Positions 1 to 5,996 of a stretch of DNA of 5,996 nucleotides are shown piece after piece. Numbering within the stretch: position 1 is the stretch's first letter; every line of letters begins with the position of its first letter. Source of the stretch: a virus (lineage: Duplodnaviria; Heunggongvirae; Uroviricota; Caudoviricetes); the IMG/VR virus record IMGVR_UViG_2713896729_000002, positions 1 to 5,996 of that record, one strand, 5' to 3'. Both the position numbers and the translations under genes were made by a program. The notes under the pieces were generated by a model. The model had not been told where the DNA came from. It saw nothing but the letters and a program-made list of their open reading frames with translations, and did no database searches.

Positions 1-330
1 GATGCTGCCATTGCCCGCGCCGATGAAACGATACGCGGGTACATGGGAACGTCAGCCACCATTACATCCGGTGAGCAGTCAGGTGCGGTGATACGTGGTG
101 TTTTTGATGACCCTGAAAATATCAGCTATGCCGGACAGGGCGTGCGCGTTGAAGGCTCCAGCCCGTCCCTGTTTGTCCGGACTGATGATGCGCGGCAGCT
201 GCGGCGTGGAGACACGCTGACCATCGGTGAGGAAAATTTCTGGGTAGATCGGGTTTCGCCGGATGATGGCGGAAGTTGTCATCTCTGGCTTGGACGGGGC
301 GTACCGCCTGCCGTTAACCGTCGCCGCTGA
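1..330 (+). CDS. FII: Lambda-like head-tail joining / tail attachment protein FII; 5' end (about 8 codons) lies outside the window
   Basis: Frame 1 is open from position 1 (DAAIARADETIRGYMGTSATI...) to TGA at 328-330. The translation matches my recollection of phage lambda gpFII, and the gene order FII-Z-U-V follows. The track ORF 43..330 is only the internal-Met version. Confidence 0.85.
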   Translation, partial: DAAIARADETIRGYMGTSATITSGEQSGAVIRGVFDDPENISYAGQGVRVEGSSPSLFVRTDDARQLRRGDTLTIGEENFWVDRVSPDDGGSCHLWLGRGVPPAVNRRR

Positions 331-341
331 AAGGGGGATGT

Positions 342-920
342 ATGGTCATAAAAGGTCTTGAGCAGGCCGTTGAAAACCTCAGCCGTATCAGCAGAACGGC
401 GGTGCCCGGTGCCGCCGCAATGGCCATTAACCGCGTTGCTTCATCCGCGATATCGCAGTCGGCGTCACAGGTTGCCCGTGAGACAAAGGTACGCCGGAAA
501 CTGGTAAAGGAAAGGGCCAGGCTGAAAAGGGCCACGGTCAAAAATCCGCAGGCCAGAATCAGGGTTAACCGGGGGGATTTGCCCGTAATAAAGCTGGGTA
601 ACGCGCGGATTGTCCTGTCCCGACGCAGGCGTCGTAAAAAGGGGCAGCGTTCAGCCCTGAAAGGTGGCGGCAGCGTGCTTGTGGTGGGAAACCGTCGTAT
701 TCCCGGCGCGTTTATTCAGCAACTGAAAAATGGCCGCTGGCATGTCATGCAGCGTGTGGCCGGGAAAAACCGTTACCCCATTGATGTGGTGAAAATCCCG
801 ATGGCGGTGCCGCTGACCACGGCGTTTAAACAGAATATTGAGCGGATACGGCGTGAGCGTCTTCCGAAAGAGCTGGGCTATGCGCTGCAGCATCAACTGA
901 GGATGGTAATAAAGCGATGA
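342..920 (+). CDS. Z: Lambda-like tail completion protein Z (minor tail protein Z), 192 aa
   Basis: ORF 342..920 with a GGGGGA ribosome-binding site 5-10 nt upstream. The protein (MVIKGLEQAVENLSRISRTAVPGAAAMAINRV...) matches lambda gpZ from memory, including the basic RRRRRKKGQR stretch. Its stop overlaps the U start (ATGA at 917-920). Confidence 0.9.
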   Translation: MVIKGLEQAVENLSRISRTAVPGAAAMAINRVASSAISQSASQVARETKVRRKLVKERARLKRATVKNPQARIRVNRGDLPVIKLGNARIVLSRRRRRKKGQRSALKGGGSVLVVGNRRIPGAFIQQLKNGRWHVMQRVAGKNRYPIDVVKIPMAVPLTTAFKQNIERIRRERLPKELGYALQHQLRMVIKR

Positions 921-1312
921 AACATACTGAACTCCGTGCAGCCGTACTGGATGCACTGGAGAAGCATGACACCGGGGCGACGCTTTTTGATGGTCGCCCC
1001 GCTGTTTTTGATGAGGAAGATTTTCCGGCAATTGCCGTTTATCTCACCGGCGCTGAATACACGGGCGAAGAGCTGGACAGCGATACCTGGCAGGCGGAGC
1101 TGCATATCGAAGTTTTCCTGCCTGCTCAGGTGCCGGATTCAGAGCTGGATGCGTGGATGGAGTCCCGGATTTATCCGGTGATGAGCGATATCCCGGCACT
1201 GTCAGATTTGATCACCAGTATGGTGGCCAGTGGCTATGACTACCGGCGCGACGATGATGCGGGCCTGTGGAGTTCAGCCGATCTGACTTATGTCATTACC
1301 TATGAAATGTGA
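917..1312 (+). CDS. U: Lambda-like tail tube terminator protein U (minor tail protein U), 131 aa
   Basis: ORF 917..1312. The protein ([36 protein letters not shown]...) matches lambda gpU from memory. It is translationally coupled to Z through the ATGA overlap. Confidence 0.9.
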
Positions 1313-1319
1313 GGACGCT

Positions 1320-1609
1320 ATGCCTGTACCAAATCCTACAATGCCGGTGAAAGGTGCCGGGACCACCCTGTGGGTTTATAAGGGGAGCGGTGACCCTTAT
1401 GCGAACCCGCTTTCAGACGTTGACTGGTCGCGTCTGGCAAAAGTTAAAGACCTGACGCCCGGCGAACTGACCGCTGAGTCCTATGACGACAGCTATCTCG
1501 ATGATGAAGATGCAGACTGGACTGCGACCGGGCAGGGGCAGAAATCTGCCGGAGATACCAGCTTCACGCTGGCGTGGATGCCCGGAGAGCAGGGGCAGCA
1601 GGCGCTGCT
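1320..1609 (+). CDS. V: Lambda-like major tail tube protein V, N-terminal ~96 codons only; truncated by the N-run at 1610
   Basis: ATG at 1320 is preceded by GAGGA (1311-1315). The translation [36 protein letters not shown]... matches the lambda gpV N-terminus. The track ORF 1290..1682 starts at an upstream in-frame ATG inside U and runs through the N gap into unrelated repeat sequence, so its 3' part is an artefact. Confidence 0.8.
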
Positions 1610-1619
1610 NNNNNNNNNN
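1610..1619. other. Assembly gap (10 N)
   Basis: Run of exactly 10 n. Sequence character changes abruptly across it, from phage V coding sequence to LDR repeat. Confidence 0.95.
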
Positions 1620-1842
1620 ACTTCCACAAGTAAATATTGGCAACCCGAGCTGGAAGCCTCATCCAGAGCACTCATGAAATGACTGTAACAGCTGTTGAAA
1701 AACCGGAATGCACTCTTCATTGCAAACATTTCAGGGATGAAGTGAAGATGAATTGAGTCGTAGTATCCACACCAAGCCGGCGTTATCCGGTGAGGCGCAA
1801 TGTTGCGGGGGCTTTATCCCTGGTGGCATTGGTTGCTGGAAA

Positions 1843-1908
1843 GAGAAAACCCCCGCACGTTGAGAGGTACAACCTGACAACAGAACGGGGGCTAATCTTG
1901 AACCAGAA
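1843..1908 (-). ncRNA. rdl: Rdl-like cis-antisense RNA (antitoxin of Ldr), copy 1; coordinates approximate
   Basis: In characterised ldr/rdl loci the ~66-nt Rdl RNA lies about 50-115 nt upstream of the ldr ATG on the opposite strand. At that position the minus strand has a hairpin (CCCCCG 1850-1855 pairing with CGGGGG 1886-1891) followed by a minus-strand U-tract (plus aagagaaaa 1841-1849), which fits an intrinsic terminator at the predicted 3' end. A weak minus-strand promoter-like TTGTAA-N17-TATTCT lies just upstream (plus ~1912-1940). Confidence 0.5.
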
Positions 1909-1956
1909 CAATTCAAGAATAGCCGCAAAATGTTGTCATTACAACAAGGCGGCTAT

Positions 1957-2064
1957 ATGACGCTCGCGCAGTTTGCCATGATTTTCTGGGACGACCTGGC
2001 AGCACCGATCCTGGCGGGAATTATTACCGCAGCGATTGTCGGCTGGTGGCGTAACCGGAAGTAA
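1957..2064 (+). CDS. ldr: Ldr-family type I toxin peptide, 35 aa (MTLAQFAMIFWDDLAAPILAGIITAAIVGWWRNRK)
   Basis: ATG at 1957, TAA at 2062-2064. It is a small hydrophobic peptide with a basic C-terminus (WWRNRK), recognised as the E. coli LdrA-D family. It is not in the supplied ORF track because it is too short. Confidence 0.8.
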   Translation: MTLAQFAMIFWDDLAAPILAGIITAAIVGWWRNRK

Positions 2065-2113
2065 GGTGAAAACGGGCGTCAGGCTGCCGTGATGGCAATA
2101 TGCGCCCGAAACC

Positions 2114-2147
2114 GGCCGCAGGGGTAACAGCCTGCGGCCATTTTTGT
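2114..2147 (+). terminator. Rho-independent terminator downstream of ldr copy 1
   Basis: Perfect 9-bp stem GGCCGCAGG (2114-2122) pairing with CCTGCGGCC (2131-2139), an 8-nt loop, then ATTTTTGTCTTT. Confidence 0.65.
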
Positions 2148-2377
2148 CTTTATCTCTTCCACAAGTAAATATTGGCAACCCGAGCTGGAAGCATCATCCA
2201 GAGCACTCATGAAACGACTGCAACAGCTGTTGAAAAGCCGGAATGTACTCTTTATTGCAAACATTTCAGGGATGAAGTGAAGATGAATTGAGAAGTAGTA
2301 TCCACACCAAGCCGGAATTATCCGGTGAGGCGCAATGTTGCGGGGGCTTTATCCCTGGTGGCATTGGTTGCTGGAAA

Positions 2378-2443
2378 GAGAAAACCCCCGCACGTTGAGA
2401 GGTAAAACCTGACAACAGAACGGGGGCTAATCTTGAAACCAGA
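2378..2443 (-). ncRNA. rdl: Rdl-like cis-antisense RNA, copy 2; coordinates approximate
   Basis: Same hairpin plus U-tract architecture as copy 1, shifted by 535 bp (CCCCCG ... CGGGGG around 2385-2426). Confidence 0.5.
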
Positions 2444-2491
2444 CACTTCAAGAATAGCCGCAAAATGTTGTCATTACAACAAGGCGGCTAT

Positions 2492-2599
2492 ATGACGCTC
2501 GCGCAGTTTGCCATGATTTTCTGGCACGACCTGGCAGCACCGATCCTGGCGGGGATTATTACCGCAGCGATTGTCAGCTGGTGGCGTAACCGGAAGTAA
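2492..2599 (+). CDS. ldr: Ldr-family type I toxin peptide, 35 aa (MTLAQFAMIFWHDLAAPILAGIITAAIVSWWRNRK)
   Basis: ATG at 2492, TAA at 2597-2599. It differs from copy 1 at two residues (D12H, G29S). Confidence 0.8.
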   Translation: MTLAQFAMIFWHDLAAPILAGIITAAIVSWWRNRK

Positions 2600-2638
2600 G
2601 GTGAAAACGGGCGTCAGGCTGCCGTGATGGCAATATGC

Positions 2639-2648
2639 NNNNNNNNNN
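2639..2648. other. Assembly gap (10 N)
   Basis: Run of 10 n that truncates LDR copy 2 at the point equivalent to 2104 in copy 1. It lies 258 bp upstream of the gltX start. Confidence 0.95.
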
Positions 2649-2813
2649 CCGCTGTGTGGAGTCGCATTATAGGGAGAGTTCAAAATGAGTCAACGCATTT
2701 TCTAAAGAAATTGTTCGTTCGTCGTAAATTTAAGCAAGATGATCGCAAAACAGACCGTGTTGCGCAATTTGTCAACGAAAACAATAATGCGTAAGGTAGA
2801 AACCCGAACTACA

Positions 2814-2841
2814 TTGAGGAATCAGGCGGGAGTGATAGAAT
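2814..2841 (+). promoter_or_regulatory. Putative sigma70 promoter for gltX (TTGAGG, 16-bp spacer, extended -10 TGaTAGAAT)
   Basis: -35-like TTGAGG at 2814-2819 and TG-extended -10 TAGAAT at 2836-2841. AAGG Shine-Dalgarno at 2895-2898 precedes the ATG at 2907. This is a motif-only call. Confidence 0.3.
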
Positions 2842-2906
2842 ATCGCCCACTCAATTTTTCCAGGATTTGCCGGTTGTCGGCATCTTTCTAAACGTAAGGC
2901 CATTTC

Positions 2907-4322
2907 ATGAAAATCAAAACTCGCTTCGCGCCAAGCCCAACAGGCTATCTGCACGTTGGCGGCGCGCGTACTGCTCTTTACTCCTGGCTTTTTGCACGTA
3001 ACCACGGCGGTGAGTTCGTGCTGCGTATTGAAGACACCGATCTTGAGCGTTCCACGCCGGAAGCTATCGAAGCCATTATGGATGGCATGAACTGGCTGAG
3101 CCTGGAGTGGGATGAAGGTCCGTACTACCAGACCAAACGTTTTGATCGCTACAACGCGGTGATCGATCAGATGCTGGAAGAGGGCACTGCTTATAAATGC
3201 TATTGCTCTAAAGAGCGCCTGGAAGCGCTGCGCGAAGAGCAAATGGCGAAAGGTGAGAAGCCGCGTTATGACGGTCGCTGCCGCCACAGCCATGAGCATC
3301 ATGCTGATGATGAACCGTGTGTTGTACGTTTTGCTAACCCGCAGGAAGGTTCTGTTGTTTTTGACGATCAGATCCGTGGTCCGATCGAGTTCAGCAACCA
3401 GGAACTGGACGATCTTATTATCCGCCGTACCGATGGTTCCCCAACCTATAACTTCTGTGTGGTTGTCGATGACTGGGATATGGAAATCACCCACGTTATC
3501 CGTGGCGAAGACCATATCAACAACACGCCACGCCAGATCAACATTCTTAAGGCCCTGAAAGCGCCGGTGCCGGTTTACGCGCACGTTTCTATGATCAATG
3601 GCGATGACGGTAAAAAACTGTCCAAACGTCACGGGGCAGTCAGCGTAATGCAGTATCGTGATGACGGTTATTTGCCAGAAGCACTGCTGAACTATCTGGT
3701 GCGTCTGGGCTGGTCCCACGGCGATCAGGAAATCTTCACTCGTGAAGAGATGATCAAATACTTCACTTTGAATGCCGTCAGCAAATCTGCCAGTGCGTTC
3801 AACACCGACAAGCTGCTGTGGCTGAACCATCACTACATTAACGCGCTGCCGCCGGAGTATGTTGCTACTCACTTACAGTGGCACATTGAGCAGGAAAATA
3901 TCGATACCCGTAACGGCCCGCAGCTGGCTGATCTGGTGAAACTGCTGGGCGAACGCTGCAAGACGCTGAAAGAGATGGCACAGAGCTGCCGTTATTTCTA
4001 CGAAGATTTTGCTGAGTTCGATGCCGACGCCGCGAAAAAACATCTGCGTCCGGTAGCGCGTCAGCCGCTGGAAGTGGTTCGTGACAAACTGGCCGCGATT
4101 ACTGACTGGACCGCTGAAAACGTTCATCACGCTATTCAGGCGACGGCGGATGAGCTGGAAGTGGGTATGGGTAAAGTTGGTATGCCGCTGCGTGTCGCCG
4201 TAACCGGTGCGGGGCAGTCTCCAGCACTGGATGTTACCGTTCACGCAATTGGTAAGACCCGCAGTATCGAGCGTATCAACAAAGCGCTGGATTTTATTGC
4301 TGAACGCGAAAATCAGCAGTAA
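2907..4322 (+). CDS. gltX: Glutamyl-tRNA synthetase (class I aminoacyl-tRNA synthetase), 471 aa
   Basis: ORF 2907..4322. It has the class I HIGH-type motif ([19 protein letters not shown]), a KMSKS-type motif (KLSKR), and the Zn-binding Cys/His cluster (CYC...CRH). Length and sequence match E. coli GltX as I recall it. Confidence 0.97.
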
Positions 4323-4335
4323 TTAGCGTGTAAAA

Positions 4336-4372
4336 AGATAAACGGCAGGAGATAATATCCTGCCGTTTTTTA
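4336..4372. terminator. Bidirectional rho-independent terminator between convergent gltX and yfeD
   Basis: Perfect 10-bp stem AACGGCAGGA (4341-4350) pairing with TCCTGCCGTT (4358-4367), loop GATAATA, followed by TTTTTTATTTA on the plus strand and preceded by TAAAAAGATA, which gives a U-tract for the minus-strand transcript. Confidence 0.75.
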
Positions 4373-4373
4373 T

Positions 4374-4658
4374 TTATGCTGATTCGTCAATATCGAGACG
4401 GGCGAGGAAATTGCGAATTCCTTCACGTGACAAAAATTGCGCGACTTTTTCCTGCTCAATGTCTGTCATATTATCTATCGCGTTGATGATTTGTCGATAC
4501 GCCGGGGCGCGTGCTCCAGGAGCGTATTCAGCAATTCTCTCTTCAGCTTCCATCAACATTGGTGTGTTATGGAAGGCTGGCGTGTTCTGAATAAACTCGC
4601 AAACTTGCGTATCGACCAGAATAAGTCTGGCACGACCGCCTTTCACGCCGGGAAATTT
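4374..4658 (-). pseudogene. yfeD: yfeD-like small DNA-binding protein (DUF1323), C-terminal ~94 codons; reading frame interrupted at 4658/4659 by an IS insertion
   Basis: Minus-strand frame is open from the stop at 4374-4376 up to 4658 (...KFPGVKGGRARLILVDTQVCEF...DIDESA). The track ORF 4374..4646 starts at GTG, which is an internal Val of the native protein as I recall it (...GWKTEKFPGVKGG...). Convergent placement next to gltX matches E. coli synteny. The N-terminal part continues on the far side of the IS (5985-5996 encodes WKTE on the minus strand, in frame). Confidence 0.6.
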
Positions 4659-4664
4659 AATGAG

Positions 4665-4676
4665 ATGGTCACTCCC
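4665..4676. repeat. Left subterminal inverted repeat of the IS (ATGGTCACTCCC)
   Basis: Exact reverse complement of 5970-5981. Confidence 0.7.
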
Positions 4677-4724
4677 TCCTTCCCGGTACTATGCTGAGGA
4701 CAGGCTTTCATTCGGAGAACTATC

Positions 4725-5729
4725 ATGGAAAACATTGCGCTCATTGGTATCGATCTGGGTAAAAACTCTTTCCATATTCATTGCCAGGATCGTCGCGGGA
4801 AGGCTGTTTACCGTAAAAAATTTACCCGGCCAAAGTTGATCGAATTTTTGGCGACATGCCCCGCTACAACCATCGCAATGGAAGCCTGTGGCGGTTCTCA
4901 CTTTATGGCACGCAAGTTGGAAGAGTTGGGGCATTCCCCAAAGCTGATATCACCACAATTTGTCCGCCCGTTCGTTAAAAGCAATAAAAACGACTTTGTC
5001 GACGCCGAAGCTATTTGTGAAGCTGCATCGCGTCCGTCTATGCGTTTTGTGCAGCCCAGAACGGAATCTCAGCAGGCAATGCGGGCTCTGCATCGTGTCC
5101 GTGAATCCCTGGTTCAGGATAAGGTAAAAACAACCAATCAAATGCATGCTTTTCTGCTGGAATTTGGCATTAGCGTTCCCCGAGGAGCTGCCGTTATTAG
5201 CCGACTGAGTACCATTCTTGAGGATAATAGTTTGCCTCTTTACCTCAGCCAGTTATTGCTGAAATTACAACAGCATTATCACTATCTTGTTGAGCAGATT
5301 AAAGATTTGGAATCCCAGTTGAAACGAAAGTTGGACGAAGATGAGGTTGGACAGCGCTTGCTGAGCATTCCCTGCGTCGGAACACTGACAGCGAGTACTA
5401 TTTCAACTGAGATTGGCGACGGGAAGCAGTACGCCAGCAGCCGTGACTTTGCGGCGGCAACAGGGCTTGTACCTCGGCAGTACAGCACGGGAGGTAGGAC
5501 GACATTGCTGGGAATTAGTAAGCGAGGTAATAAAAAGATCCGAACTTTGTTGGTTCAATGTGCCAGGGTATTCATACAAAAACTGGAACACCAGTCTGGC
5601 AAATTGGCCGATTGGGTCAGGGATTTACTGTGCCGGAAAAGCAACTTTGTCGTCACTTGTGCTCTGGCAAACAAGCTGGCCAGAATAGCCTGGGCCCTAA
5701 CGGCACGACAGCAAACTTATGTAGCATAA
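4725..5729 (+). CDS. IS110-family transposase / DEDD recombinase, 334 aa
   Basis: ORF 4725..5729 with GGAGA ribosome-binding site 7 nt upstream. N-terminal MENIALIGIDLGKNSF has the conserved RuvC-like catalytic Asp (DEDD_Tnp_IS110 type). The C-terminal region has the Transposase_20-type signature (IPCVGTLTASTISTEIGDGKQYASSRDFAAATGLVPRQYSTGG). Confidence 0.9.
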   Translation: MENIALIGIDLGKNSFHIHCQDRRGKAVYRKKFTRPKLIEFLATCPATTIAMEACGGSHFMARKLEELGHSPKLISPQFVRPFVKSNKNDFVDAEAICEAASRPSMRFVQPRTESQQAMRALHRVRESLVQDKVKTTNQMHAFLLEFGISVPRGAAVISRLSTILEDNSLPLYLSQLLLKLQQHYHYLVEQIKDLESQLKRKLDEDEVGQRLLSIPCVGTLTASTISTEIGDGKQYASSRDFAAATGLVPRQYSTGGRTTLLGISKRGNKKIRTLLVQCARVFIQKLEHQSGKLADWVRDLLCRKSNFVVTCALANKLARIAWALTARQQTYVA

Positions 5730-5969
5730 CGGCAGAAATACACCGGTTTAAAGAATTACTGATCTGGTTTTGCGAATACTGATATTGATGATACTAACGG
5801 CCCACCGGCCTGTTGAGGAACCTGTAAAACGGAAAGGCTCATTGAAGCCGTATATTTTCTGGAGGTTCATCAGGCGCGGAACTCATCAAGGCGCGGGAAT
5901 AAAATCCCATTCAGACGCCGGATAGATTCAAGCAAGCCAACTTGTCGTCAAAATCGGTGTTGCAAAAAC
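5730..5969 (+). ncRNA. Putative IS-encoded guide RNA (seekRNA / bridge-RNA-like) in the non-coding right end of the IS; boundaries unknown
   Basis: 240 bp between the transposase stop and the right inverted repeat has no ORF of 60 aa or more that lies wholly inside it. It contains AAAACGGAAA (5826-5835), the reverse complement of target flank TTTCCGTTTT, followed 2 nt later by CTCATT (5838-5843), the reverse complement of the IS left terminal hexamer AATGAG. It also has an imperfect direct repeat, CATCAGGCGCGGAA (5869-5882) and CATCAAGGCGCGGGAA (5885-5900). IS110/IS1111 elements are known to encode such RNAs in their long non-coding end. Confidence 0.35.
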
Positions 5970-5981
5970 GGGAGTGACCAT
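5970..5981. repeat. Right subterminal inverted repeat of the IS (GGGAGTGACCAT)
   Basis: Exact reverse complement of 4665-4676, 3 bp from the inferred right end. Confidence 0.7.
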
Positions 5982-5984
5982 AGA

Positions 5985-5996
5985 TTCCGTTTTCCA
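5985..5996 (-). pseudogene. yfeD: yfeD, 5'-proximal part resuming after the IS (continues beyond the window)
   Basis: Minus-strand codons at 5985-5996 read W-K-T-E, which joins in frame to KFPGVKGG at 4658 and downstream once 4659-5984 is removed. This matches the recalled native YfeD sequence ...REKGWKTEKFPGVKGGRARL... Confidence 0.5.

Follow-up and report, generated by a model that had tools for sequence, protein, structure and literature searches.

Two tandem Ldr/Rdl toxin-antitoxin units between runs of N: almost certainly a separate contig from the chromosomal LDR array of Escherichia coli

Introduction

The window analysed here, a stretch of 5,996 nucleotides recorded as virus DNA, contains a block of long direct repeats with phage tail genes on one side and the leader of gltX on the other, and a run of Ns at each of its ends. 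This raises the questions of what the repeats encode, how many of them the source genome holds and whether they belong between these neighbours at all. A sequence-only reading took the block to be two tandem LDR units encoding Ldr/Rdl type I toxin-antitoxin modules, and cautioned that the flanking gaps hide both the copy number and the genomic neighbours. The comparisons described below indicate that positions 1620 to 2638 are almost certainly a separate short contig of a draft E. coli assembly, carrying a complete LDR unit of 535 bp followed by 484 bp of another (Table 1) from the chromosomal LDR array. An Ldr/Rdl array is an already known and ordinary feature and its biological value is small; of practical use is what it tells about annotation and the quality of the assembly.

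Table 1. Features of the LDR block and its borders (positions in the window)
Feature	Positions	Strand	Remarks
10-N run	1610-1619		Contig separator, lambdoid prophage tail-gene contig from LDR contig
LDR unit 1	1620-2154	+	Complete, 535 bp, LDR-A type; 482/484 identical to K-12 LDR-A
Candidate ldr -10 box, copy 1	1761-1766	+	TAGTAT
rdl antisense RNA gene, copy 1	1844-1909	-	RdlA-type; Rfam RF01813 (rdlD) 86.3 bits, model positions 1-66
Candidate leader ORF (ldrX-like), copy 1	1898-1960	+	TTG start, GGGGG upstream at 1887-1891, 20 codons
Candidate rdl promoter, copy 1	1916-1944	-	Read directly from the sequence
ldr toxin gene, copy 1	1957-2064	+	35 aa, MTLAQFAMIFWDDLAAPILAGIITAAIVGWWRNRK; Pfam PF13940 Ldr_toxin 82.5 bits
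Intrinsic terminator of ldr mRNA, copy 1	2114-2146	+	Stem 2114-2139, 9 pairs (8 G-C), then ATTTTTGT
LDR unit 2	2155-2638	+	Cut at unit position 484 by N run; 479/484 identical to K-12 LDR-B
Candidate ldr -10 box, copy 2	2296-2301	+	Equivalent of the copy 1 box
rdl antisense RNA gene, copy 2	2379-2444	-	RdlB-type; Rfam RF01813 (rdlD) 91.4 bits, model positions 1-66
Candidate leader ORF, copy 2	2433-2495	+	TTG start, 20 codons, ATGA overlap
Candidate rdl promoter, copy 2	2451-2479	-	Equivalent of the copy 1 promoter
ldr toxin gene, copy 2	2492-2599	+	35 aa, MTLAQFAMIFWHDLAAPILAGIITAAIVSWWRNRK; Pfam PF13940 Ldr_toxin 86.0 bits
10-N run	2639-2648		Contig separator, LDR contig from gltX contig

The repeat units and their types

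The direct repeats identified by repeat search are spaced 535 nt from start to start and were judged to be far beyond chance. Alignment of positions 1620-2154 with 2155-2638 using MAFFT gave no net insertion or deletion, and the two units agree at 464 of the 484 comparable positions (95.9%). The period of about 535 bp that had been read from the letters therefore stands, while the identity is slightly lower than the 97% or so then given. No repeat was reported by Tandem Repeats Finder, a limit of the tool, whose longest period (500) is shorter than the unit. In either copy the toxin and the antisense RNA both score above the curated cutoffs for Ldr and Rdl, in agreement with the proposal of two tandem LDR units carrying Ldr/Rdl modules.

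The comparison with the K-12 ldr loci that had been suggested alongside that proposal places Rdl at the same position and relates unit 1 to LDR-A and unit 2 to LDR-B, with the near-identities listed in Table 1. Unit 1 is also identical, at 535 of 535 positions, to unit 2 of the array of E. coli TKEC21-59. Unit 2 is a mosaic in which the 5' part, upstream of the gene, is of LDR-B type and the coding region is of LdrA/C type, and its differences from K-12 LDR-B are concentrated in the coding sequence.

The mosaic, together with stretches in which the two units cannot be told apart, bears on how far the contig itself is to be trusted. The units are identical over 113 nt around each junction (2042-2154) and again over the 70 nt that separate the last leader variant (equivalent to 1911) from the first variant of the coding sequence (equivalent to 1982). 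Both lengths are comparable to those of short reads or k-mers, and the link between unit 1 and unit 2, or the mosaic structure of unit 2, could in principle have been created by the threading of reads through such stretches, in which case the two units of the contig would not be real neighbours. The match record is consistent with a partial chimera of this kind, as neither unit 2 (best match 99.6%) nor the whole 1019-nt contig with its pair of units (best 99.3%) has an exact counterpart in complete genomes, whereas unit 1 has exact matches. Mosaic units are nevertheless common in complete arrays, for example unit 3 of NT1N31, an A-type unit encoding a Thr9/Ser29 peptide, and unit 3 of Ec42, and they fit with gene conversion between units; the order of an A-type followed by a B-type unit also exists in finished five-unit arrays. 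We consider a chimera improbable, and the elements would remain genuine Ldr/Rdl modules in either case.

A further open frame of 39 codons with a TTG start (1637-1756 and 2172-2291) was considered and rejected as a coding gene. Four of the six differences between its two copies are non-synonymous and its start is absent from the first unit of complete arrays.

Toxin genes, antisense RNAs and their signals

Both units are type I toxin-antitoxin modules, and the presence, integrity and arrangement of their parts were observed directly. Both peptides match the Pfam family PF13940 from end to end (positions 1-35 of 35; cutoff 27). The copy 2 peptide is identical to LdrA and LdrC of K-12. The copy 1 peptide is LdrA with the changes H12D and S29G; it is the same as the product of a gene annotated WP_000170951.1 and is also annotated in TKEC21-59 and NT1N31. 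In the mechanically produced list of open reading frames the two genes appear solely as 44-aa versions starting from an upstream ATG (1930 and 2465); the sequence-only reading had called a 35-aa Ldr frame in each copy, absent from the list. Homologues were collected by a 15-mer scan of 596 Gb of genome contigs. This returned 120 loci, mostly chance matches, of which a peptide-motif filter kept about a dozen real Ldr loci from E. coli, E. ruysiae, E. whittamii, Escherichia sp. E1V33, Kluyvera and Citrobacter sedlakii. In the homologues from other species the upstream ATG is ACG or CCG. As this codon is not kept, the N-terminally extended 44-aa form was rejected and the 35-aa start is correct. 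Toxin genes of 35 codons and the Rdl RNAs opposite them are easily overlooked in ORF tracks.

On the opposite strand both copies of rdl match the Rfam model RF01813 over its full length and above its gathering score of 50. The copy 1 RNA consists of a 16-nt single-stranded 5' tail, a long stem-loop and a U tract, and the predicted folds are stable at -26.7 kcal/mol each, with z scores of -4.55 (copy 1) and -4.48 (copy 2). A minus-strand hairpin with a U-tract at the end of Rdl, previously noted by eye for both copies, is thus borne out; the length of about 66 nt given for Rdl agrees with the 66-nt matches found here and needs the minor correction that the annotated K-12 RNAs range from 64 to 68 nt. 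In both copies Rdl overlaps the 5' leader of ldr and not its coding region, at -113 to -48 from the ldr ATG, in agreement with rdlA as annotated in K-12, at -48 to -114 from the ldrA ATG.

The strong plus-strand terminator that had been proposed downstream of the copy 1 toxin is present as a nine-pair stem with its following tract (Table 1) and folds at -23.3 kcal/mol. It is kept across species with a variable loop, and the corresponding position in copy 2 falls in the N gap. We infer the promoters from position and conservation. The candidate -10 box of ldr reads TAGTAT or TAGAAT in 16 homologous loci from Escherichia spp., Kluyvera and Citrobacter, and the distance from this box to the terminator would give an ldr mRNA of roughly 370 nt; no convincing -35 box was found for the ldr promoter. 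The candidate rdl promoter of copy 1 comprises a -35 hexamer TTGTAA (1944-1939), a 17-nt spacer and a -10 hexamer TATTCT (1921-1916), with the Rdl 5' end (1909) lying 6 nt further on. In the homologue alignment the two hexamers are kept from species to species. A scan with the sigma-70 consensus found no promoter at a threshold of 9 matches, the candidate rdl promoter matching at 8 of 12 positions.

A candidate leader ORF precedes ldr in both copies, its stop codon TGA overlapping the ldr start as ATGA, and its own start codon and the SD-like GGGGG run lie within the stretch complementary to Rdl. The start, GGGGGCTAATCTTG, is conserved and the frame is open as far as the ldr start in 16 of 16 homologous loci, in three frame relations: it overlaps ldr as ATGA in ldrABC-type loci, shares the frame of ldr in ldrD-type loci and lies in the +2 frame in Kluyvera. 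Since the leader region is conserved at the nucleotide level, the open frame is weak evidence for the ORF. A model in which such a leader ORF, ldrX, takes part has been described (PMC4147584; PMC8167048), and reviews call it unconfirmed.

These parts suggest the following mode of action. The plus strand would be transcribed into an ldr mRNA with a long 5' UTR, the 35-codon gene for a single-pass membrane peptide and the intrinsic terminator, and the minus strand into a 66-nt Rdl that is fully complementary to the ldr leader between -113 and -48, a stretch that leaves out the ribosome-binding site of ldr. With its unpaired 5' tail, Rdl would cover the GGGGG-N6-TTG translation start of the 20-codon leader ORF, and pairing would block translation of the leader ORF and with it the coupled translation of ldr. 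A drop in Rdl would then allow Ldr to be made and to insert into the inner membrane, with a collapse of energy production and growth arrest. Coupling of Rdl to ldr through the leader ORF is most likely the mechanism, following the parallel with hok/mok/sok drawn in the literature, and like the promoters it is put forward here as a candidate. Toxicity of LdrD and its rescue by RdlD have been reported (PMC4147584; PMC8167048), and inhibition of ATP synthesis has been described for LdrA, a membrane toxin of 35 aa (PMC12643268). The alleles in the window are presumed to be toxic as well, the D12 allele of copy 1 with more doubt.

The D12 allele raises the question of whether one or both units are decaying, non-functional remnants, with the copy 1 toxin in particular inactivated by H12D. 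In favour of decay, all 15 other Ldr homologues in the alignment, from Escherichia spp., Kluyvera and Citrobacter, have His at position 12, where copy 1 has Asp. Both ORFs are, on the other hand, of full length, without frameshift or stop and well above the Pfam cutoff, and the two Rdl genes are undamaged, as are the leader and the terminator. The exact 91-nt core of the D12 allele was found in 478 complete-genome records, sometimes twice in one array, which argues against random decay. Taken together these observations make non-functional remnants very unlikely and favour intact modules.

The array and its place in the chromosome

As first read, N runs flank the block on both sides, each of 10 N. 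The piece to the left contains Z, U and the 5' part of V (Pfam matches Minor_tail_Z, Phage_tail_U and Phage_TTP_12) and breaks off in the middle of gene V; such lambdoid tail genes occur about twice per genome. The gltX leader to the right is present at 95% identity or more in 5426 of 5426 complete genomes and is single-copy in nearly all of them. In the one complete genome opened at this locus, the sequence upstream of the leader is a valU-type tRNA cluster with tRNA-Val and tRNA-Lys genes, and the gltX piece of the window starts at the base directly after a tRNA-Val gene (position 4001 of L002, with the tRNA at 3925-4000). Since this piece begins just past a tRNA-Val repeat, none of the three pieces is a true neighbour of another. 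The N runs are placeholders between unrelated contigs, which break at repeated sequence.

LDR matches were found in all 5426 complete E. coli genomes, at a median of 4 places per genome. Six complete arrays, with 3, 3, 4, 4, 5 and 5 units, were inspected, and in 6 of 6 the near-identical units lie between chaA and kdsA. The chaA-kdsA interval would thus be the home of the contig, a placement that rests on homology as the flanks in the window are N. With the LDR units between chaA and kdsA and the gltX leader behind a tRNA cluster in complete genomes, the block is, as far as homology can tell, unlinked to V or gltX.

The contig starts with the junction base A and then CTTCCACAAG, a sequence that in complete arrays is present at internal unit junctions only, with n-1 occurrences for n toxins; in the unit that follows chaA, the stretch from unit position 1 to about 55 is missing. 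K-12 and five other complete arrays have exactly this junction sequence. Because the contig begins with internal-junction sequence, at least one further unit must lie upstream, and the source genome must have at least three LDR units. The closest complete arrays have four or five units, with strains PRO_A-1478, NT1N31, 3PT and Ec42 as analogues, and the source genome probably has as many; the best full-length matches place the contig on units 3-4 of four- to five-unit arrays. The earlier caution that the gaps hide copy number and neighbours was correct, with the qualification that neighbours can be inferred from homology and that three or more units can be deduced. The opposite case that it had named, a block of just two copies running straight into V and gltX, is as good as excluded by the internal-junction start and by the locations in complete genomes. 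A complete, correctly scaffolded and relocated two-copy array truly lying between V and the gltX leader, with the N runs as small real gaps, is suggested by the order of the pieces in the window and by nothing else, and is extremely improbable given that the gltX leader is found in all 5426 complete genomes and is tRNA-preceded in the one opened, with the window's piece starting right after the tRNA, that ldrABC-type arrays lie between chaA and kdsA in all six opened, that the contig start implies an LDR unit and not phage DNA on the left, and that the left-hand piece ends inside gene V.

The contig end lies 62 nt past its last copy-specific variant, a distance from which a k-mer size of the assembler could be read only by over-interpretation. 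Joining the contig end through an invariant 51 nt to the contig start would close a circle of 1070 bp. The contig looks like one turn of a higher-order repeat of A-type and B-type units that the assembler could not extend. The LDR array is accordingly under-represented in this assembly, as at least three units are required and related finished genomes have four or five. Gene neighbourhoods that span the N runs are not interpretable, the window being a concatenation of unrelated contigs. It is conceivable, though unlikely, that the source strain has an expanded (A-type, B-type)n array including Ldr(H12D, S29G), which could be a toxin naturally attenuated or altered in function and now present in about 9% of the complete E. 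coli genome records through its spread. If this were true, toxin dose would be tuned by array expansion and allele shuffling.

Comparison with known systems

Ldr/Rdl has been characterised since 2002. In K-12, LDR-A, -B and -C lie between kdsA and chaA (Kawano et al. 2002, as cited in PMC4147584). The block resembles the K-12 pairs ldrA-rdlA, ldrB-rdlB and ldrC-rdlC in its 535-bp tandem period and in the identical order of parts in each unit. It differs from ldrABC in the H12D and S29G changes of the copy 1 peptide, a common natural allele, in the joining of an LDR-B leader to an LdrA/C coding region in copy 2, and in the order of the units, which is A-type then B-type in the window, as found in five-unit arrays, and C-B-A in K-12.

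The experimentally characterised pair is ldrD-rdlD of K-12, a single LDR-D unit near bcsG and so at a different locus from ldrABC. Its Pfam and Rfam families and its architecture are those of the window units, and leader and terminator are highly conserved between them. Across the whole unit only about 66-67% of the nucleotides agree (323/487 and 327/487), and LdrD differs from the copy 2 peptide at 13 of 35 residues; the published identity of LdrA to LdrD is 74% (PMC12643268). The leader ORF with its conserved TTG shares the reading frame of ldrD, whereas in the window it ends in the ATGA overlap.

The likeness to hok/mok/sok lies in an antisense RNA that pairs with the 5' leader and not with the toxin ribosome-binding site, and in a leader ORF, here a candidate, that overlaps the toxin start. 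A hok/sok-like organisation is noted for Ldr/Rdl in T1TAdb. At the RNA level the resemblance is weak, the Rfam sok model RF01794 matching the plus strand at 31.4 and 29.3 bits, below its gathering score of 59. Neither peptide matched a Hok family, Ldr_toxin being the sole Pfam family for either at E <= 0.01. Membership of the hok/sok family was rejected on these two grounds.

Ldr and Fst peptides have been reported to form one superfamily, with a transmembrane helix, a conserved Trp and a charged C terminus (PMC2887945). The two systems differ in the placing of the antisense RNA, which in Fst/RNAII (par of pAD1) faces the 3' end of the gene for the toxin (PMC2887945), whereas in the window it faces the 5' leader.

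The LDR units and their alleles

A repeat search of the window found a direct repeat with a start-to-start spacing of 535 nt. MAFFT alignment of 1620-2154 (copy 1) with 2155-2638 (copy 2) showed no net indel and identity at 464 of 484 comparable positions (95.9%), copy 2 being cut short by the contig end at unit position 484. Tandem Repeats Finder reported nothing, since its maximum period (500) is shorter than the 535-nt unit. The toxin open reading frames (ORFs) of both copies score above the Pfam Ldr_toxin cutoff of 27 bits and both antisense RNA genes above the Rfam rdlD gathering score of 50 bits (Table). Folding of either Rdl sequence gives the long hairpin that was expected, its 5' tail unpaired and its 3' end a U tract (-26.7 kcal/mol, z ~ -4.5). 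The sequence-only reading had described two tandem units with Ldr toxins, a plus-strand terminator after the toxin gene of copy 1, a minus-strand hairpin and U tract at the end of both Rdl RNAs and N runs on both sides of the block, all of which are borne out here; the high identity it noted also stands, although its figure of about 97% was slightly too high.

Table. Features of the window.
Feature	Position	Strand	Remarks
Piece 1	1-1609		lambda-like tail proteins Z and U, start of tail tube protein V (Pfam)
Upstream head-tail gene			end only
Z	342-920
U	917-1312
V	from 1320		cut by the gap after 96 codons
Piece 2	1620-2638		LDR block, 1019 nt
rdl copy 1	1844-1909	-	rdlD full length, 86.3 bits
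Candidate leader ORF copy 1	1898-1960	+	TTG start, 20 codons, TGA overlapping ldr ATG
ldr copy 1	1957-2064	+	35 codons; Ldr_toxin 82.5 bits, all 35 positions
Terminator copy 1	stem 2114-2139	+	strong, intrinsic; 8 G-C pairs, then T tract; 3' of toxin gene
rdl copy 2	2379-2444	-	rdlD full length, 91.4 bits
Candidate leader ORF copy 2	2433-2495	+	as copy 1
ldr copy 2	2492-2599	+	35 codons; Ldr_toxin 86.0 bits, all 35 positions
Piece 3	2649-5996		gltX leader, gltX, interrupted yfeD
gltX	2907-4322
IS4321-family element	4659-5984		IS110/IS1111-type, complete, 1326 bp, inside yfeD
Transposase ORF	4725-5729	+	IS4321-family

The units are long direct repeats (LDRs) of E. coli, a known and ubiquitous element that was correctly named from the start. 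None of the 5426 complete E. coli genomes lacks a match to the block; the median number of places per genome is four and the highest twelve, counts that probably take in partial matches to ldrD-type loci. The comparison with the K-12 MG1655 loci proposed in the earlier reading gave 482/484 identical positions between copy 1 and LDR-A and 479/484 between copy 2 and LDR-B. Copy 2 combines an LDR-B-type leader with a coding region carrying LdrA/LdrC variants, and its peptide is exactly that of K-12 LdrA/LdrC. The exact copy 2 unit is absent from complete genomes (best match 99.6%), as is an exact match to the pair of units. This absence, together with the 113 identical bases that the units share in the region surrounding each junction and the 70 identical bases between the leader and coding variants, would be compatible with a partly chimeric contig, but similar mosaic units are present in finished arrays and we regard chimerism as rather improbable.

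Both differences between copy 1 and LDR-A fall within the toxin gene and give the substitutions H12D and S29G. Codon 12 (window position 1990), Asp in copy 1, is an invariant His in 15 other aligned homologues from Escherichia spp., Kluyvera and Citrobacter. The copy 1 peptide is the same as WP_000170951.1 annotated in complete genomes, and the whole unit is identical (535/535) to one unit of strain TKEC21-59. The exact 91-nt coding core with D12 occurs in 478 of 5335 matching complete E. coli genome records, and this retention of the allele makes it unlikely that copy 1 has decayed.

Leader organisation and Rdl pairing

It has been shown that overproduction of LdrD kills E. coli and that RdlD gives relief, and an unconfirmed proposal is that a leader ORF, ldrX, provides translational coupling like that of hok to mok (PMC4147584, PMC8167048). 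The 35-aa LdrA peptide spans the inner membrane once and inhibits ATP synthesis, presumably by pore formation (PMC12643268). Within each ldr leader of the window, the stretch complementary to Rdl runs from -113 to -48. The 16 unpaired nt of the Rdl 5' tail lie opposite a conserved GGGGG-N6-TTG (TTG at 1898 and 2433), where the candidate leader ORF starts. In an alignment of 16 homologous loci (E. coli, E. ruysiae, E. whittamii, Escherichia sp. E1V33, Kluyvera and Citrobacter sedlakii) the start of this ORF, GGGGGCTAATCTTG, is conserved, as is a TAGTAT/TAGAAT box that lies 5' of the leader. Candidate rdl promoter hexamers (-35 TTGTAA, 17-nt spacer, -10 TATTCT, 6 nt to the Rdl 5' end) are likewise conserved. 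The bases directly 3' of the TTG, which make up the Rdl 5' tail, differ between units, and a role for this variable tail in cognate recognition would fit the sequences.

The TTG frame is open as far as the ldr start in 16/16 loci, in three frame relations: overlapping the ldr start by ATGA in ldrABC-type units, sharing the ldr frame in ldrD-type units and lying at +2 in Kluyvera (leader-ORF comparison loci L004, L032, L040, L068, L091, L093, L121 and L123). As the leader region is conserved at the nucleotide level, the open frame supports the leader-ORF model weakly. Translational coupling of the hok/mok/sok kind is the most likely mechanism of ldr control: the anatomy is present in the window and, by analogy, translation of the leader ORF would be coupled to that of ldr as for mok and hok, with the Rdl 5' tail covering the leader-ORF start. 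In ldrD-type units the in-frame leader ORF has 55 codons and would yield an N-terminally extended Ldr peptide. The leader frame of copy 1 and other A-type units (those resembling LDR-A) extends back without a stop to a GTG at -167 (56 codons), and a TAA at -87 interrupts that of B-type and C-type units.

Contig breaks and the probable home of the array

The 5996 bases of the window form three pieces, with a run of exactly ten N between one and the next (1610-1619 and 2639-2648). Piece 1 is prophage DNA with matches in 4104 of 5426 complete genomes, at about two per genome (median two places), and the presence of several related prophages in the source genome probably accounts for its break. 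The gltX leader is found at >=95% identity in 5426/5426 complete genomes and is single in nearly all. In the one complete genome opened here (L002) three tRNA-Val and one tRNA-Lys genes, a valU-type cluster, lie upstream of it, and piece 3 starts (2649) at the base directly after the nearest tRNA-Val gene (gene at L002 3925-4000, piece 3 from L002 4001); the tRNA repeat 5' of gltX is where the assembly was interrupted. Repeated sequence thus marks all three breaks, and the N runs serve to separate contigs. The LDR block adjoins neither V nor gltX.

In 6/6 complete arrays opened, the LDR units lie between chaA and kdsA (three units in K-12 and TKEC21-59, four in 3PT and Ec42, five in PRO_A-1478 and NT1N31). 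In complete arrays all internal junctions share one build: 51 invariant nt with CTTTATC at their end, a single base that is A ahead of A-type units and T ahead of B-type units, and finally CTTCCACAAG. The CCACAAGTAAATA motif occurs n-1 times per n toxin genes and never before the first unit, in which chaA flank replaces the first ~55 positions. The contig opens with A followed by CTTCCACAAG, which is internal-junction sequence, so a further unit lay to its left and the source array had at least three units. The N runs do mask copy number and neighbours, as the sequence-only reading held, but both can be approached through this junction and the homologous arrays. A true two-copy array between V and gltX is contradicted by the junction and flank evidence and is excluded for practical purposes.

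The source array probably had four or five units. The order A-type then B-type is absent from K-12 (C-B-A) and present in five-unit arrays (C-B-A-B-A), and the contig aligns to the third and fourth units in the four best-matching arrays opened; the whole contig is matched at >=99% in only 69 records. Contig end, invariant 51 nt and contig start would together close a 1070-bp circle of two units, the shape that a collapsed (A-B)n repeat would be expected to take. In practice, the window is to be read as a chain of unrelated contigs in which the LDR array is incompletely represented.

The insertion in yfeD

Uninterrupted yfeD joins GGGAAATTT to TTCCGTTTTCCA, and there is no target duplication at the IS site. 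The subterminal inverted repeats of the element are ATGGTCACTCCC and GGGAGTGACCAT, and its target, GAAAACGGAAAA, seems similar to the terminal repeat of the Tn21 family, the usual target of IS4321-family elements. A yfeD-plus-IS query was >=80% covered in 895 records from 733 of the 5426 complete genomes, and some of these records may represent IS copies elsewhere; in strain EcPF16 the junction region is 100% identical throughout.

Comparison with known systems

At the level of sequence, the LDR block has all the features that define the Ldr/Rdl family, ldrABC subgroup. Tandem ldrD-type modules at ~481-bp spacing were seen in Escherichia ruysiae (L032, three copies) and Escherichia sp. E1V33 (L068, two), so tandem expansion is not confined to the ldrABC locus. 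Plus-strand matches to Rfam sok (RF01794) at 1807-1959 (31.4 bits) and 2342-2494 (29.3 bits) span the ldr leader in both copies. These fall below the gathering score of 59 and the sole Pfam hit of either peptide at E <= 0.01 is Ldr_toxin; membership of hok/sok was therefore rejected. According to the T1TAdb paper, features of RNA and organisation can place Ldr/Rdl loci in the Hok/Sok class, and the resemblance to sok probably reflects shared leader architecture rather than membership. With the Fst family the Ldr peptides share a superfamily, but the antisense RNAs differ in position, at the 5' end for Ldr/Rdl and at the 3' end for Fst.
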